Below are positions 1 to 7,629 of a stretch of DNA of 64,000 nt, one piece after another (position 1 is the first letter of the stretch; every line of letters begins with the position of its first letter). The notes under the pieces are model-generated. The model did not search any database. It saw only the letters and a program-made list of their open reading frames with translations, and had not been told where the DNA came from. The stretch is from the NCBI RefSeq assembly GCF_001677475.2, contig NZ_CP015229.1; one strand, 5' to 3'. A program made the position numbers and the translations under genes. The stretch comes from Escherichia coli (GTDB taxonomy: Bacteria > Pseudomonadota > Gammaproteobacteria > Enterobacterales > Enterobacteriaceae).

Positions 1-1134
1 TCTGAACTGAACGATCTTCTGACCACCCGTGAGCTACAACGCTGGCGATTAATTCTTGGAGAAGCGGCAGAAACGACGCTTTGTGGGCTGGATGACAACG
101 CCCGGCAGATAGACCACGCGCTGGAGTGGCTGTATGGGCGCGATCCTGAACGGCTCCAGCGTGGTGAACGTTCCGGTGGATTAGGTAGCTCAAATCTCAC
201 CACCCCTGAGTGGATCAACAGTATTCACACGCTGTTTCCGCAACAGGTGATTGAGCGGCTGGAAAGCGATGCCGTACTGCGCTACGGCATTGAAGATGTG
301 GTGACGAATCTCGACGTGCTGGAACGTATGCAGCCTTCTGAAAGCCTGCTACGCGCCGTTTTGCACACCAAACATCTGATGAATCCCGAAGTACTGGCTG
401 CCGCCCGCCGGATAGTGCGCCAGGTTGTTGAAGAAATTATGGCTCGACTGGCAAAGGAAGTTCGTCAGGCTTTTTCTGGTGTCCGCGATCGCCGTCGCCG
501 CTCATTTATTCCACTGGCGCGAAACTTTGATTTCAAAAGTACTCTGCGCGCCAACCTGCAACACTGGCACCCGCAACACGGCAAGTTGTATATCGAATCC
601 CCCCGCTTTAACAGCCGCATTAAACGCCAAAGCGAACAATGGCAACTGGTCTTACTGGTTGATCAAAGCGGCTCGATGGTTGACTCGGTGATCCACTCAG
701 CGGTGATGGCGGCCTGTTTGTGGCAGTTACCCGGCATTCGTACCCATCTGGTGGCGTTTGACACAAGCGTCGTTGATCTCACGGCAGACGTTGCCGATCC
801 GGTAGAACTATTAATGAAAGTACAACTGGGCGGCGGAACCAATATCGCCAGTGCCGTGGAGTATGGTCGGCAACTTATTGAACAACCAGCAAAAAGCGTC
901 ATTATCCTCGTGAGCGATTTTTATGAAGGAGGTTCATCATCATTGCTGACGCATCAGGTGAAAAAATGTGTCCAGAGCGGCATCAAAGTGCTGGGACTGG
1001 CGGCGCTCGATAGCACCGCAACACCTTGCTATGACCGCGATATGGCCCAGGCACTGGTTAATGTCGGTGCACAAATAGCCGCCATGACGCCGGGCGAACT
1101 GGCATCATGGCTGGCGGAGAATCTTCAGTCATGA
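1..1134 (+). CDS. yehP: VWA-domain protein YehP, 5' end cut by window edge (about one codon missing)
   Basis: Frame 1 is open from position 1 to TGA at 1132-1134; ORF-track product matches YehP (vWA-like C-terminus); stop overlaps next start (ATGA). Confidence 0.85.
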   Translation, partial: SELNDLLTTRELQRWRLILGEAAETTLCGLDDNARQIDHALEWLYGRDPERLQRGERSGGLGSSNLTTPEWINSIHTLFPQQVIERLESDAVLRYGIEDVVTNLDVLERMQPSESLLRAVLHTKHLMNPEVLAAARRIVRQVVEEIMARLAKEVRQAFSGVRDRRRRSFIPLARNFDFKSTLRANLQHWHPQHGKLYIESPRFNSRIKRQSEQWQLVLLVDQSGSMVDSVIHSAVMAACLWQLPGIRTHLVAFDTSVVDLTADVADPVELLMKVQLGGGTNIASAVEYGRQLIEQPAKSVIILVSDFYEGGSSSLLTHQVKKCVQSGIKVLGLAALDSTATPCYDRDMAQALVNVGAQIAAMTPGELASWLAENLQS

Positions 1135-3131
1135 ATTCACTACGTCCGGAATTATTAGAACTGACACCGCAGGCGCTGACGGCGTTAAGCAATGCCGGTT
1201 TTGTGAAGCGCAGTCTTAAGGAACTGGAAAATGGCAACGTCCCGGAAATCAGCCATGAGAACGGTGTTTTACTCGCCACGTTCAGTGACGGTGTCCGTAC
1301 CCAACTGGCGAACGGTCAGGCACTGAAAGAGGCTCAGTGCAACTGCGGGGCCAGCGGCATGTGCCGTCATCGCGTGATGCTGGTGTTAAGTTATCAACGA
1401 CTTTGCGCTACCGCCCAGCCCACGGAAAAAGAAGAAGAGTGGGATCCAGCAATCTGGCTGGGAGAGCTGGCAACCCTACCCGATGTCACCCGTAAACGTG
1501 CACAAGCTCTTGTCGCTAAAGGCATCACCATTGAGTTGTTCTGTGCGCCGGGCGAAATTCCCTCTGCCCGCTTACCGATGAGTGATGTGCGTTTTTATTC
1601 CCGCAGCAGCATTCGTTTCGCACGCTGTGATTGTATTGAAGGCACGCTGTGTGAACATGTAGCACTGGCTGTGCAGGCCTTCGTCGAGGCCAAAACTCAG
1701 CAAGCGGAATTTAACCATTTGATCTGGCAGATGCGCAGCGAACACGCCGCATCATCTGACGATCCATTTGCCAGCGAAGAAGGCAAAACGTGTCGTCAAT
1801 ATGTTCAGCAATTAAGTCAGGCATTATGGCTGGGCGGCATCAGCCAGCCGCTTATTCATTACGAGGCTGCTTTCAGCCGCGCGCAGCAAGCGGCGGAACG
1901 CTGCAACTGGCGCTGGGTAAGTGAATCACTACGACAGCTACGGGCAAGCGTTGATGCCTTCCACGCCCGCGCCAGCCACTACCATGCCGGAGAATGCTTA
2001 CGTCAGCTTGCGGCATTAAACAGTCGATTAAATTGCGCACAAGAGATGGCCCGGCGCGACAGTGTTGGTGAAGTTCCTCCCATGCCGTGGCGCACGGTCG
2101 TTGGCGCTGGCATTGCCGGAGAAGCAAAGCTTGATCATCTGCGGCTGGTGTCTTTAGGTATGCGTTGCTGGCAGGATATTGAGCAGTATGGTTTACGCAT
2201 CTGGTTTACCGATCCCGACACCGGCAGTATTTTGCATCTTTCGCGTAGTTGGCCGAGAAGCGAACAGGAAAACTCACCGGCAACGACGCGTCGGCTGTTT
2301 AGTTTTCAGGCTGGCGCACTGGCTGGTGGGCAAATTGTTTCACAAGCAGCAAAACGCAGTGCCGATGGCGAGCTGCTGTTAGCTACCCGCAACCGCTTAA
2401 GCAGCGTTGTGCCGCTGTCGCCAGACGCCTGGCAAATGTTGAGCGCGCCATTGCGCCAGCCGGGCATTGTGGCTTTGCGGGAATATTTACGCCAGCGTCC
2501 CCCCGCCTGCATACGGCCTCTTAATCAGGTGGATAACTTATTTATTCTGCCAGTCGCTGAGTGTATTTCACTCGGTTGGGATAGCAGCCGCCAGACGCTG
2601 GATGCGCAGGTAATCAGCGGCGAAGGTGAAGATAATCTGCTGACGTTATCACTGCCAGCCTCAGCCAGTACGCCTTATGCCGTTGAACGTATGGCGGCGC
2701 TTTTGCAACAAACAGAGGACCCCGTGTGTCTGGTTTCTGGCTTTGTCAGTTTTGTAGAGGGGCAATTGACACTGGAACCACGGGTGATGATGACAAAAAC
2801 CCGCGCCTGGGCGCTGGACGCAGAAACTGCGCCTGTGGCACCGCTACCTTCTGCCAGCGTTTTGCCTGTGCCGTCTACCGCTCATCAGTTGCTGATGCGC
2901 TGCCAGGCGTTACTTATTCAACTGCTCCATAACGGTTGGCGCTATCAGGAACAGAGTGCTATTGGTCAGGCAGAGTTGCTGGCGAATGACCTCACCGCGG
3001 TGGGTTTTTATCGGCTGGCACATGTGTTGGCACAATTTCGTAATACAGAAAGCGAGGCATGGGTAGAAGCAATGAATAACGGTGTTTTACTTTGCGAACA
3101 ATTATTCCCCATGCTTCAGCAACAAGGATGA
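1131..3131 (+). CDS. yehQ: SWIM zinc-finger protein YehQ
   Basis: ATG at 1131 overlapping yehP stop; product has two CxC...CxH SWIM-like motifs (QCNCGASGMCRH, CDCIEGTLCEH); conserved position after yehP. Confidence 0.8.
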   Translation: MNSLRPELLELTPQALTALSNAGFVKRSLKELENGNVPEISHENGVLLATFSDGVRTQLANGQALKEAQCNCGASGMCRHRVMLVLSYQRLCATAQPTEKEEEWDPAIWLGELATLPDVTRKRAQALVAKGITIELFCAPGEIPSARLPMSDVRFYSRSSIRFARCDCIEGTLCEHVALAVQAFVEAKTQQAEFNHLIWQMRSEHAASSDDPFASEEGKTCRQYVQQLSQALWLGGISQPLIHYEAAFSRAQQAAERCNWRWVSESLRQLRASVDAFHARASHYHAGECLRQLAALNSRLNCAQEMARRDSVGEVPPMPWRTVVGAGIAGEAKLDHLRLVSLGMRCWQDIEQYGLRIWFTDPDTGSILHLSRSWPRSEQENSPATTRRLFSFQAGALAGGQIVSQAAKRSADGELLLATRNRLSSVVPLSPDAWQMLSAPLRQPGIVALREYLRQRPPACIRPLNQVDNLFILPVAECISLGWDSSRQTLDAQVISGEGEDNLLTLSLPASASTPYAVERMAALLQQTEDPVCLVSGFVSFVEGQLTLEPRVMMTKTRAWALDAETAPVAPLPSASVLPVPSTAHQLLMRCQALLIQLLHNGWRYQEQSAIGQAELLANDLTAVGFYRLAHVLAQFRNTESEAWVEAMNNGVLLCEQLFPMLQQQG

Positions 3132-3255
3132 AATAGTGCTTTTTACTAAGAGTTCTACTCCAGTTCCGGACTGCTCACGCCACGGCATTAGGCATATCCT
3201 ATATAGCCCCTGGTGAGAGTCACCAGTTTCTTGATTAAATAAAATGGAGTTTTAC

Positions 3256-3717
3256 ATGAAGGCTTTCAATAAGCTGTTTTCCCTCGTTGTTGCATCTGTT
3301 CTGGTTTTCTCTCTTGCTGGCTGCGGTGACAAAGAAGAATCGAAGAAATTCAGCGCCAATCTGAACGGCACTGAAATTGCCATTACCTATGTCTACAAAG
3401 GTGACAAGGTGCTTAAGCAATCTTCTGAAACCAAAATTCAATTTGCCTCCATAGGTGCTACCACCAAAGAAGATGCTGCCAGGGCACTTGAGCCGTTAAG
3501 CGCCAAATACAAAAACATCGCGGGTGTTGAAGAAAAATTAACCTATACCGATACCTACGCGCAGGAAAACGTGACTATCGATATGGAAAAAGTGGATTTT
3601 AAAGCCCTGCAGGGTATTTCAGGAATCAACGTTTCTGCTGAAGATGCCAAAAAAGGTATCACTATGGCGCAAATGGAACTGGTGATGAAAGCCGCTGGTT
3701 TCAAAGAAGTGAAATAA
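3256..3717 (+). CDS. yehR: Lipoprotein YehR (DUF1307)
   Basis: Signal peptide with lipobox LAGC; internal ATG at 3256 chosen over ORF-track start 3244. Confidence 0.8.
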   Translation: MKAFNKLFSLVVASVLVFSLAGCGDKEESKKFSANLNGTEIAITYVYKGDKVLKQSSETKIQFASIGATTKEDAARALEPLSAKYKNIAGVEEKLTYTDTYAQENVTIDMEKVDFKALQGISGINVSAEDAKKGITMAQMELVMKAAGFKEVK

Positions 3718-3722
3718 TCTGT

Positions 3723-3748
3723 CGGCGGCCATGTTTCGCATGGCCGCC
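3723..3748. terminator. GC-rich hairpin between convergent yehR and yehS, likely bidirectional terminator
   Basis: Inverted repeat cggcggccatg / catggccgcc with 5-nt loop immediately after yehR stop. Confidence 0.45.
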
Positions 3749-3757
3749 ATACCCGTC

Positions 3758-4228
3758 TTAGCTTTTCTTCACATGCTGGCGCGCTGCCAGTCCACGCAGA
3801 AAATAACGTAAAAATTGATCGCCGCATTCGCGGAAGTTTTTATGATCCGGTGCGCGCATCATCGCCGTAATTTCCGGCATCGAAACGCGGAACTGCTGTT
3901 CGGTGAGGATCGCCAGAATGTCATCGGTTTTCAGCGAAAACGCGATGCGTAATTTTTTCAGCACGATGTTGTTATTAATGCGACGTTCCGGTTCCAGTGC
4001 CGGAGCAGACTCATCCTTGCCGCGTTTTTCATAAATCAGGCCATTGAGGAATGACGACAAAACAATGTCCGGACAACGCTGAAAACCCTCTTCGTCTTCT
4101 TTACGTAGCCAGACGGCGATCTGTTCCGCGGTGGCTTCGACATTACCCAGCGCCAGAATACGAACCAGGTCATTATTATTGGCTTTCAAAATGTAGCGCA
4201 CGCTGCGCAGAATATCGTTACTTAGCAT
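3758..4228 (-). CDS. yehS: DUF1456 protein YehS
   Basis: ORF-track 175 aa trimmed to internal ATG (MLSNDILRSV...) giving 156 aa. Confidence 0.8.
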   Translation of the reverse strand: MLSNDILRSVRYILKANNNDLVRILALGNVEATAEQIAVWLRKEDEEGFQRCPDIVLSSFLNGLIYEKRGKDESAPALEPERRINNNIVLKKLRIAFSLKTDDILAILTEQQFRVSMPEITAMMRAPDHKNFRECGDQFLRYFLRGLAARQHVKKS

Positions 4229-4274
4229 GAGGCCTTCAGGTGTTGATGAGGCAAAAAGCCATTTTAGCAGTCTT

Positions 4275-4994
4275 TTACAGGCCAATCGCCTCTTTTAAGC
4301 TTTTCAGATAACGGCGGCTGACCGGCACGGTTAAGCCATTACGCAAAATCAACTCGGCCTGGCCGTTATCTTCCAGACGAATCTCCTGTAAATGCGCGAG
4401 GTTAACCAGATACTGACGATGGCAGCGCAGTAGTGGTGTACGACTCTCCAGGGTACGTAATGTCAATTCGGTAAAGCCCTCTTTCCCTTCGTGGCTGGTA
4501 ACGTAGACACCGCTCATCCGACTGCTGACAAATGCCACATCTCTCATTTGCAGCAAATAAATCCGACTATGCCCCGTACAAGGGATAAATTTCAGCGCCT
4601 GTTGATTTTCCGGTAACAGCGAAACATCCTGCTTGCTGCGTTCCTGACGCAAACGCGCCAGCGTTTTCTCCAGTCGAGCTTCATCAATTGGCTTCAGCAG
4701 ATAGTCAAAGGCATGTTCTTCAAAGGCTTTAATAGCGTATTCGTCAAACGCGGTGAGAAAAACAATATACGGACGATGTTCCGGGTCGAGCATCCCCACC
4801 ATTTCCAGACCACTGATGCGCGGCATCTGGATATCGAGAAACAGCACATCCGGGCGCAGTTTATGCACCGCGCCGATCCCTTCCACGGCGTTTGAACACT
4901 CACCAACGATTTCAATATCGCTCTGCTCCTGCAAAAATACGCGCAGGTTCTCCCGTGCTAACGGTTCATCATCGACAATTAAGACTTTAATCAT
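4275..4994 (-). CDS. btsR: LytTR-family response regulator BtsR (YehT)
   Basis: Receiver domain ([11 protein letters not shown]...) plus LytTR C-terminus; start ATG at 4994 overlaps btsS stop. Confidence 0.85.
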
Positions 4995-6676
4995 GCCTCG
5001 TCCCTCCATGGTAGTCGTAACGTTATTCGGGTGTAACTATCAGGCTCACAGGCGACGCTTATCCCATAGTCATCGCCAAACCGTTCACGTAAACGCTTAT
5101 CCACCAGATTCATCCCCAGCCCACTGGCATTGGTTACCGGTTGATACAAACCGGCATTGTCTTCGATCTCCAGCATCAAATGTTGCCCCTCACGTCGGGC
5201 GCTGATTGCCACTCGCCCTGTATCCAGCAGTTGTGATGTCCCATGTTTAATGGCGTTTTCCACTATCGGTTGCAGGGTAAACGCGGGCAATTGCTGCCGG
5301 GATAATTCCTCCGGAATAGCAATGTTGACCTGCAACCGTGACTGGAAGCGCGCCTTTTCAATTTGCAGATAAGCGTTCACATGTTCAATTTCGTCGGCGA
5401 GAGTAACAAACTCCGAAGGCCGCTTTAAGTTTTTGCGGAAAAAAGTGGAAAGATACTGCACCAGCTGGCTGGCCTGTTCGCTGTCGCGACGGATCACCGC
5501 TTTAATGGTGTTAAGCGCATTAAACAAAAAATGGGGGTTCACCTGGGCGTGAAGCAGTTTGATCTCTGACTGGGTGAGCATCGCTTTTTGCCGCTCATAT
5601 TGCCCGGCAAGGATCTGCGCCGAAAGCAGTTGCGCAATCCCCTCGCCCAGCGTGCGGTTGATTGAACTGAATAAACGGTTTTTGGCTTCATACAATTTGA
5701 TGGTGCCCATCACCCGCTGATTTTCACCACGCAACGGAATTACCAGCGTCGACCCCAGTTTGCATTGCGGATGCAAAGAGCAACGATAAGGTACTTCGTT
5801 GCCATCAGCGTAGACCACTTCACCGGTTTCAATCGCTTTTAAGGTGTAAGTCGAAGAAATCGGTTTGCCGGGTAAATGGTGATCGTCACCAATTCCGGTA
5901 AAGGCCAGCAATTTCTCTCGATCGGTAATCGCGACTGCACCAATATCCAGCTCCTGATACAGCACCTGTGCCACTTTCATGCTGTTCACTTCGTTAAACC
6001 CCTGGCGCAAAATGCCTTCCGTCGAGGCCGCCACTTTCAGCGCAGTGGCAGAAAAAGCTGAAGTGTATTTTTCAAACATCGCGCGTTTATCGAGCAATAT
6101 ACGCATAAACAGCGCCGCGCCGACGGTATTGGTGACCATCATTGGCGCAGCAATATTACTCACCAGACGCACCGCATCTTCATAAGGTCGGGCGATTGCC
6201 AGGATGATCAACATTTGCACCATTTCAGCGACGAACGTGACGGCACCGGCGGTAATGGGGTTAAAGACTTTATCAGTGCGCCCGCGACGGATCAGGATGC
6301 TGTGTACCAGGCCGCCGAGCAATCCTTCAACGATGGTCGAGATCATGCAACTTAGCGCGGTCATGCCCCCCATCGAATATCGATGTAACCCGCCGGTCAG
6401 GCCAACCAGCCCACCGACGACCGGACCGCCGAGTAAGCCGCCCATTACCGCGCCTATCGCACGGGTATTGGCAATAGAATCGTCAATGTGCAACCCAAAC
6501 CAGGTGCCCATGATGCAGAAGATGGAAAAGACGATGTAGCAGAGAAATTTATGCGGCAGACGAACCGTGACCTGCATTAACGGTATGAATAATGGCGTTT
6601 TACTCATTAACCACGCAATGACTAAAAAAACGCACATCTGCTGAAGCAGCAGCAACACCAGATTAAAATCGTACAT
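4991..6676 (-). CDS. btsS: Sensor histidine kinase BtsS (YehU), LytS family
   Basis: 561-aa membrane histidine kinase with 5TM-LytS, GAF and HATPase regions; start trimmed to [10 protein letters not shown]. Confidence 0.85.
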
Positions 6677-6897
6677 ACCCGCAAACCACACTTCCCTTTA
6701 AAACGCGTAACATACATTGCCTGCGTTTAACTTTCTTTGAACTCTTGCAGAAAAATGAGAATTCGTGAGTACGATCACTCAAAATCGCCTGGCAAAAATA
6801 AAATCACCCTATAAATGCACAAAAAACGGGCAAAACTACCTGGTTCGCAAAACTGCGTCTAAAGTTAAACCGGGACCTCGCGAGCAAGGGTGAGACG

Positions 6898-7629
6898 ATG
6901 GCGCTTTACACAATTGGTGAAGTGGCGTTGCTTTGTGATATTAACCCTGTCACGTTACGCGCGTGGCAGAGGCGTTACGGATTGCTGAAACCGCAACGGA
7001 CAGACGGCGGTCATCGGCTGTTCAACGATGCCGATATTGACCGTATCCGCGAGATCAAACGCTGGATCGACAACGGCGTGCAGGTCAGCAAAGTTAAAAT
7101 GCTGCTCAGTAATGAAAATGTTGATGTGCAGAACGGCTGGCGCGATCAGCAAGAAACATTACTGACCTACCTGCAAAGCGGCAATCTGCATAGCCTGCGA
7201 ACGTGGATCAAAGAGCGCGGTCAGGATTACCCCGCCCAGACACTCACCACACATCTGTTTATTCCTCTGCGCCGACGGCTTCAGTGCCAACAACCGACTC
7301 TCCAGGCGCTGCTGGCGATCCTCGACGGCGTACTGATCAACTACATCGCCATTTGTCTGGCTTCGGCACGTAAAAAACAGGGTAAAGATGCGCTGGTGGT
7401 TGGCTGGAATATTCAGGATACCACCCGTCTGTGGCTGGAGGGCTGGATTGCCAGTCAACAAGGATGGCGCATTGATGTCCTCGCCCACTCGCTCAATCAA
7501 CTACGCCCTGAACTATTCGAAGGCCGTACATTGCTGGTGTGGTGCGGTGAAAATCGAACCTCCGCCCAACAGCAGCAACTCACCAGTTGGCAAGAACAAG
7601 GCCATGATATTTTCCCACTCGGCATTTAA
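6898..7629 (+). CDS. mlrA: MerR-family transcriptional regulator MlrA (YehV)
   Basis: 243-aa product with N-terminal MerR HTH (MALYTIGEVALLCDINPVTLRAWQRRYGLL). Confidence 0.85.
   Translation: MALYTIGEVALLCDINPVTLRAWQRRYGLLKPQRTDGGHRLFNDADIDRIREIKRWIDNGVQVSKVKMLLSNENVDVQNGWRDQQETLLTYLQSGNLHSLRTWIKERGQDYPAQTLTTHLFIPLRRRLQCQQPTLQALLAILDGVLINYIAICLASARKKQGKDALVVGWNIQDTTRLWLEGWIASQQGWRIDVLAHSLNQLRPELFEGRTLLVWCGENRTSAQQQQLTSWQEQGHDIFPLGI

Follow-up and report, generated by a model that had tools for sequence, protein, structure and literature searches.

The window analysed here is a 64,000-nucleotide stretch of Escherichia coli DNA (assembly GCF_001677475.2, contig NZ_CP015229.1) that begins with yehP and yehQ. 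The two genes are translationally coupled and close a conserved operon, which in E. coli has the order (molR, yehI, yehK)-yehL-yehM-yehP-yehQ; the next gene is yehR. The window holds only these two distal genes, which are ordinary and well annotated in Escherichia. The original prediction had assigned a C-terminal VWA domain to YehP and two SWIM-type motifs to YehQ, and had placed yehL, encoding a MoxR-like AAA+ ATPase, and yehM directly upstream. Domain searches, named beforehand as a possible refutation, confirmed both assignments, and the two upstream genes are seen at that place in E. coli 47-1826 and in the K-12 annotation. That the module has no assigned function agrees with the searchable literature, in which no experimental function was found. 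The further statement that nothing more could be concluded was too pessimistic: a predicted tandem OB fold in YehQ, a predicted TIKI-type fold in YehM and a variant locus with a WGR domain on a DNA ligase all provide leads.

YehP and YehQ

Frame 1 of the window is open for 377 codons over positions 1-1134, starting SELNDLL and ending with a TGA at 1132-1134. The annotated E. coli yehP has 1,137 nucleotides and the window matches it from the fourth base, and therefore only the ATG is missing. YehP consists of an N-terminal region of about 150 amino acids followed by a CoxE-type VWA domain, with which the protein ends. Kaur et al. 2020 (PMC7159879) describe CoxE-type proteins as carrying their VWA behind an N-terminal helical domain. 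The match to the Pfam family VWA_CoxE (PF05762) covers the full 222-position profile with E=2.2e-72 and 243.5 bits (cut-off 26.4); VWA_2 is matched as well (E=1.3e-8), while the cobaltochelatase model reaches 18.5 bits against a cut-off of 779. The metal-ion-dependent adhesion site (MIDAS) is complete (DxSxS...T...D): all 78 aligned homologues share DQSGS and the aspartate, and all 79 alignment rows the threonine.

YehP also contains an exact copy of the +1 frameshift-prone cassette published for K-12 yehP, where frameshifting was shown by reporters and mass spectrometry (PMC2790909). The shifted product would be without the last MIDAS aspartate. We considered whether the site is conserved family-wide and rejected this; the shifty GGT-CGG pair is confined to Escherichia loci, so that the site seems incidental and not a family trait.

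The ATG of yehQ overlaps the yehP stop codon (ATGA). A longer reading frame from 1107 in the mechanical list of open reading frames, adding eight residues, is unsupported, as all homologues begin near MxxxRxDLL. Pfam SWIM (PF04434) matches YehQ in two stretches with E=4.8e-7 and 29.6 bits (cut-off 19.6). All eight predicted zinc-ligand positions are at least 90% conserved in 125 homologues with identities down to 24%, which is far beyond chance. An exhaustive HMMER search returned 827 clusters of homologues at 50% identity (E<=1e-3), mostly full-length proteins of 620-700 amino acids.

Structure prediction, proposed with the original prediction, gave a confident AlphaFold2 model of YehQ built from 125 homologues (pLDDT 94, pTM 0.92). 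According to this model, two SWIM zinc fingers, helical bundles and a tandem of OB folds like that of RPA70 DBD-A/B would make up YehQ. The model contains two consecutive five-stranded OB barrels, and a Foldseek comparison with RPA70 DBD-A/B (1jmc) yielded E=2.5e-3 and a probability of 0.99 over 255 columns. Other tandem-OB matches are Teb1 AB, LEF-3, MNDA HIN and POT1. The predicted barrels superpose on the DNA binders RPA70 DBD-A/B, Teb1 AB, POT1 and baculovirus LEF-3, the nearest PDB structures to the model. The sequence identity to these proteins is, however, only about 10%, and the YehQ pair sits between SWIM fingers and helical bundles, an architecture found in none of them. PDB sequence and profile searches with YehQ, YehP and YehM returned nothing significant.

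Several candidate observations on YehQ were discarded. Its 'interaction' in a cross-linking paper is a false match to an entrapment database, and an apparent VWA-SWIM fusion (P0179) is an artefact of a frameshift-ridden contig. A 1,044-amino-acid VWA-SWIM fusion cluster from E. coli has only two members.

Features of yehP and yehQ in the window (positions in nucleotides; aa, amino acids)
Feature	Position	Strand	Remarks
yehP coding sequence	1..1134	+	complete apart from the ATG 3 nt ahead of the window; E. coli annotation yehP
VWA_CoxE domain of YehP	448..1113	+	Pfam PF05762; aa 150-371 of 377 translated
MIDAS motif D-Q-S-G-S of YehP	661..675	+	further MIDAS residues Thr 838-840, Asp 916-918
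+1 frameshift-prone cassette GTGGAGTATGGTCGGC	856..871	+	exact match to the site published for K-12 yehP
yehQ coding sequence	1131..3131	+	666 aa, intact, full length; aligned end to end with homologues
Two SWIM-containing alpha/beta modules of YehQ			aa 1-210; AlphaFold2 model
SWIM motif 1, CNCGASGMCRH (C70-x-C72-x5-C78-x-H80)	1338..1370	+	Pfam SWIM; aa 70-80; model helix from residue 79
SWIM motif 2, CDCIEGTLCEH (C166-x-C168-x5-C174-x-H176)	1626..1658	+	second Pfam stretch; aa 166-176; model helix from residue 175
Helical bundle joining SWIM region to OB folds	1776..2063	+	aa 216-311; AlphaFold2 model
Predicted OB fold 1	2118..2420	+	about aa 330-430; beta-barrel in model
Predicted OB fold 2	2532..2816	+	about aa 468-562; classical b1-b2-b3-helix-b4-b5 order in model
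C-terminal helical bundle of YehQ	2877..3125	+	aa 583-665; AlphaFold2 model
Terminator-like hairpin CTGGTGAGAGTCACCAG with T-rich tail	3210..3226	+	yehQ-yehR gap; consensus scan only; possible operon end

An Rfam scan of window positions 1-6000 gave no match.

Conserved partners, gene order and distribution

The genomic-context survey, also proposed with the original prediction, covered one genome per species. It used a 20-sequence alignment as query, the alignment of 125 sequences being too diverse, and returned 79 loci from three phyla, spread over Gamma- and Betaproteobacteria (Enterobacterales, Burkholderiales, Xanthomonadales and Neisseriales), Trichlorobacter and Actinobacteria (Mycobacterium and Propionibacteriaceae). 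Searches with the E. coli proteins (tblastn) recovered the same-strand order AAA_5-DUF5682-VWA-SWIM in all 79 loci with sufficient sequence, and the modal junction between consecutive genes is a 4-bp overlap. A gene for a DUF4132 protein adjoins yehLMPQ in all of the approximately 70 genome loci with enough flank, directly upstream or, in Burkholderia, directly downstream. The description as a four-gene module therefore captures the fixed yehLMPQ order and falls short of its extent: the conserved unit is usually larger and comprises five or six genes, joined by a WGR-DUF4132 protein. Two metagenomic loci (L091 2667-8921 and L092 5351-11965) hold the four-gene core alone; downstream of the core, L092 carries a gene with a faint Pfam match to DNA_alkylation (AlkD-like HEAT). 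No further neighbour is conserved across the 79 loci, yehK being limited to Escherichia and yehR to Escherichia and Klebsiella. Single-linkage clustering of the flanking reading frames merged all those on the plus strand, and is informative only on the absence of other conserved neighbours.

YehL, whose gene lies outside the window and neighbours these genes in E. coli, matches AAA_5 (dynein-related/MoxR) with E=1.6e-34. As expected of an intact MoxR-class ATPase, its Walker A, Walker B, sensor 1 and arginine finger are invariant in 74 sequences. E. coli has only two MoxR ATPases; YehL is one of them and serves as type member for the 'YehL subfamily', one of seven MoxR subfamilies (PMC3893208). 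The strict operon linkage and the 4-bp overlaps lend indirect support to a putative physical interaction of YehL with YehP, in which the VWA partner may stimulate the ATPase.

YehM belongs to DUF5682. Its predicted structure points to a TIKI/TraB/ChaN/erythromycin-esterase fold followed by a HEAT-like solenoid of about 500 amino acids, and contains the parallel beta-sheet core common to TraB, ChaN, Ere and RRSP. The TIKI-fold proteins listed, with their figures, are ChaN (9.8), HopBA1 (9.7), the erythromycin-esterase-like Bcr proteins (8.9, 7.5), PMT (7.6), EreC (7.0) and RRSP (6.8). When residue conservation is mapped on the predicted fold, the invariant residues H11, E35, H51, E83 and H202, candidates for a catalytic 2His/2Glu motif, come after core strands. 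The TIKI superfamily takes in TIKI, TraB/PrgY, GumN, ChaN, the erythromycin esterases, RRSP, PMT-C1/C2 and HopBA1. YehM falls outside its current Pfam models: of 35 members, three match ChaN at E=0.06 and one matches TraB at E=0.33. It also differs from the members of the superfamily in the fusion to the solenoid. In one Escherichia sp. genome (MOD1-EC7003, L005 6596-8125) the yehM frame apparently has 509 codons instead of about 759, a possible pseudogene or assembly error.

The WGR domain is the module by which PARPs read DNA breaks. The MolR-type partner, a protein of about 1,300 amino acids (1,200-1,420), begins with a bona fide WGR domain followed by about 900 residues and DUF4132. An N-terminal WGR was found on the DUF4132 protein in five of seven cases tested (Pfam E=2e-15 to 3e-19), namely in E. 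coli MolR and in beta-, delta- and actinobacterial versions. Against the PDB, only the WGR part of the profile was matched, by the bacterial WGR protein 2ra8 (E=3e-18) and by the WGR of PARP3 (E=1e-3). Like these proteins and PARP1-3 in its WGR, the MolR-type partner differs from PARP1-3 in having no PARP catalytic domain; the other roughly 1,100 residues, including DUF4132, have no solved homologue. Several lineages carry two tandem DUF4132 paralogues, one with and one without WGR, as E. coli does with molR and yehI.

A variant was found in a JGI metagenome (3300044952; L086 1-11938). Its first gene encodes an NAD-dependent DNA ligase (adenylation, OB and BRCT domains) with a C-terminal WGR, and is followed by MoxR, an ankyrin-DUF4132 protein without WGR, a DUF5682::VWA_CoxE fusion of 1,107 amino acids, and SWIM. 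The fusion argues that YehM and YehP work as a single physical unit. With its WGR moved to a ligase, the variant links the system to DNA nicks, which we regard as a lead and not as a rule.

Within E. coli, the yehPQ stretch was found by megablast in 5,414 of 5,426 complete genomes (99.8%) at one chromosomal site, annotated as a VWA protein and a SWIM protein with yehM before and yehR after, and the dominant YehQ clusters are full-length at 666-667 amino acids. Compared with two E. coli strains, the window copies have ratios of nonsynonymous to synonymous substitution rates (dN/dS) of 0.04 for yehP and 0.10 for yehQ; both genes are under purifying selection. The best identity of window positions 1-3400 among the complete genomes is 96.4%, against 98.9-99.2% for the flanks, and the dS of yehQ is 0.16-0.23 compared with 0.02-0.07 for yehR, yehS, btsRS and mlrA (window 3300-7629). 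Such deep alleles with low dN/dS suggest an old polymorphism or recombination with divergent Escherichia lineages. Carriage on plasmids is rare (21 of 72,556 records). An apparent case of phage carriage was rejected, as the match in the VT1-Sakai (Stx1) record AP000400.1 is host flank inside a prophage record. The annotation of that record also lists yehV (mlrA) under the match; in the window mlrA (6898-7629) is uninterrupted, so no prophage is inserted there.

The K-12 locus is damaged. In MG1655, yehQ has a TAG at codon 615, where the window reads GAG (2973-2975), giving 614 instead of 666 amino acids without the last 52 residues (yehQ at L084 16101-17945), and molR is broken into the WGR remnant yehF and the pseudogene yehH (L084 3475-7270). 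With two components broken, K-12 genetics may have been uninformative, and knock-out phenotypes obtained there may say little on the intact system. The locus is also regulated: yehLM is silenced by H-NS/StpA, with H-NS binding reported upstream of yehL (PMC3686432), and the molR promoter is activated by BglJ-RcsB (PMC3950696). The yehK-yehL gap is about 1.2 kb and AT-rich (GC 43-46%) in strain 47-1826 (L001 4388-5626), and about 0.3 kb in K-12 (L084 11291-11596).

The gene molR is cited as a member of the LexA regulon (PMC8533742). We found a LexA-box-like sequence, CTGGATAAAATTACAG, 10 nucleotides upstream of the molR ATG (L085 2796-2811, strain 47-1826) and a similar one in Intestinirhabdus (L011). 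In Deinococcus, depletion of DdrO, the repressor of the RDR regulon, strongly derepressed the DUF4132 gene DRA0166 and the WGR gene DR2173 (PMC8533742). SOS control as a general feature was rejected; since the box is not conserved in other genera, such control is at most lineage-specific.

A possible DNA-responsive machine and its rivals

The yeh operon probably encodes one multi-protein machine. With slightly less than an even chance of being right, we read it as an ATP-gated MoxR-VWA assembly for the recognition of single-stranded DNA or nicks, in which YehM is probably the hydrolase. By analogy with RavA-ViaA, CoxD-CoxE, BchI-BchD and Rea1-MIDAS, a list taken from Kaur et al. 2020 (PMC7159879), the YehL ring would use ATP to pull on a partner held by the YehP MIDAS site. 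This site may serve as an adaptor that remodels the partner by gripping one of its acidic residues. Recruitment to nicked, gapped or single-stranded DNA, or gating on such DNA, would fall to the WGR domain together with the SWIM/OB module of YehQ, and the output of YehM would be scaffolding or hydrolysis, as a protease or an esterase. Physiologically, the machine could serve to handle DNA damage or to control foreign DNA. The DNA-machine reading draws on the collinear gene order with its 4-bp overlaps, the strict joint inheritance and translational coupling of the components, the adjacent WGR-DUF4132 gene, the invariant YehL motifs and YehP MIDAS, the fusion and ligase-WGR of the metagenomic variant, the low dN/dS, and the LexA-like box at molR together with its cited regulon membership.

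Several points weigh against this reading. DNA binding, complex formation and hydrolase activity are predictions, and the OB and TIKI assignments come from predicted structures with marginal Foldseek E-values (2.5e-3). OB folds, SWIM fingers and WGR domains can also serve protein-protein contacts, and the TIKI fold also occurs in ChaN and HopBA1, neither of which is a known hydrolase. The ligase-WGR variant comes from one metagenomic contig, and the LexA-like box, found in 6 of 54 loci, is at background rate and not conserved outside Escherichia and Intestinirhabdus. Finally, the two distant metagenomic loci with the bare core have no DUF4132 gene within 7-10 kb, and the fifth component is therefore usual, though not obligatory in cis. 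A bolder form of the proposal, in which the yeh module is a previously unrecognised ATP-gated machine triggered by nicks or single-stranded DNA that controls a TIKI-type hydrolase in a new DNA-damage or foreign-DNA response, is in our view doubtful. If true, it would mean that a response system present in almost every E. coli was missed since the K-12 copy is crippled in molR and yehQ and silenced by H-NS.

An alternative use of the same parts would be dedicated anti-phage or anti-plasmid defence, resembling the vWA-MoxR ternary conflict systems: MoxR-VWA would set an ATP-dependent threshold, WGR and SWIM-OB would sense invader DNA, and YehM, as a TIKI-type protease, would be the toxic effector. 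The patchy spread across phyla with genus-specific flanks, implying horizontal transfer, fits this idea, as do the H-NS/StpA silencing (PMC3686432), the deep yehQ alleles, the existence of TIKI-fold toxins (RRSP, HopBA1) and the argument of Kaur et al. 2020 (PMC7159879) for a repeated recruitment of CoxD-CoxE-type pairs into conflict systems. However, PADLOC-DB 2.0 returned zero matches for YehP, YehQ, YehL, YehM, YehI and YehK. Among 102 flanking proteins from 25 genera, there were isolated single-component matches and mostly housekeeping Pfam content, and no defence islands. The match to the bpMoxR Pfam model, at 18.6 bits, stays below the threshold of 27. Moreover, the locus is near-fixed at one E. 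coli site, unlike most defence systems, which vary. Plasmids seldom carry it and no phage genome does, and its low dN/dS gives no sign of diversifying selection. We consider a defence role unlikely.

A chaperone for metal-cofactor or metalloenzyme maturation, as in CoxD-CoxE, NorQ-NorD, CbbQ-CbbO and the three-subunit chelatases CobS-CobT-CobN and BchI-BchD-BchH, is quite improbable. Here MolR/YehI would take the place of the large subunit, and YehM would bind metal or haem through its ChaN-like domain. The assignment to the CoxE family, the likeness of the fold to ChaN and the old name molR (molybdate) all speak for it, but no metalloenzyme, transporter, cofactor-biosynthesis gene or XdhC/CoxF-type partner is conserved beside the operon in the 79 loci. 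What the conserved partners have instead are modules of the WGR, SWIM and RPA-like OB kinds, with a DNA ligase in one case. A Pfam scan of MolR/YehI returned WGR and DUF4132 only, with no CobN/BchH similarity, and in Deinococcus the expression of the molybdate-metabolism genes moeA and moeB was unchanged while the DUF4132 and WGR genes were strongly induced by DdrO depletion (PMC8533742). Still another view, that a horizontally acquired cassette is decaying and functionless today in Escherichia, could appeal to the broken molR and yehQ of K-12, the transcriptional silencing by H-NS (PMC3686432), the apparently truncated yehM in one genome and the lack of a reported clear phenotype. We hold this reading to be highly improbable, and the data on selection and conservation largely refute it: the window has both genes intact and with low dN/dS, nearly all complete E. 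coli genomes have the locus with mostly full-length YehQ, and the catalytic and metal-ligand motifs are all conserved across phyla.

Relation to known MoxR-VWA systems

The genes themselves are known and annotated, and MoxR-VWA systems are a known kind; the set of partners is without a described counterpart. A literature search found no paper on the combination of SWIM, WGR, MoxR and VWA, never came upon DUF5682 and met DUF4132 once. The operon defines a MoxR subfamily without an assigned function, for which the analysis offers falsifiable roles: YehQ as a zinc-finger and RPA-like DNA reader, YehM as a TIKI-type hydrolase on a HEAT scaffold, and MolR/YehI as a WGR-headed partner.

The closest comparison within E. 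coli is RavA-ViaA, the other MoxR-VWA pair, in which a MoxR-class AAA+ protein and a VWA/MIDAS protein are likewise encoded in one operon and a chaperone-like function is thought likely (PMC3893208). YehL, however, belongs to another MoxR subfamily. RavA-ViaA is a two-gene system with LdcI, Nuo and Frd as its targets, whereas the yeh system has three or four additional large partners (YehM, YehQ, WGR-DUF4132). The vWA-MoxR ternary conflict systems share the plan of a MoxR-VWA core with extra large components able to sense and execute, and are said to descend from CoxD-CoxE pairs (PMC7159879). That work mentions no SWIM, WGR or DUF4132, and the yeh loci in turn have no VMAP, iSTAND or beta-propeller component in Pfam searches and no effector fused to the VWA C-terminus. 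From the AAA+/VWA chelatases CobNST and BchHID, the yeh system differs by having no large subunit of the CobN/BchH family in the Pfam scan.

CoxD-CoxE matures the Mo-Cu centre of CO dehydrogenase. YehP resembles the CoxD-CoxE-CoxF system of Oligotropha in belonging to the VWA_CoxE family, but the yeh loci have no cox structural or CoxF-like gene nearby, and their partners carry domains of nucleic-acid type. If the link to DNA is true, the yeh operon would provide the first case of a MoxR-VWA system linked with nucleic acid and not with metalloenzyme maturation.

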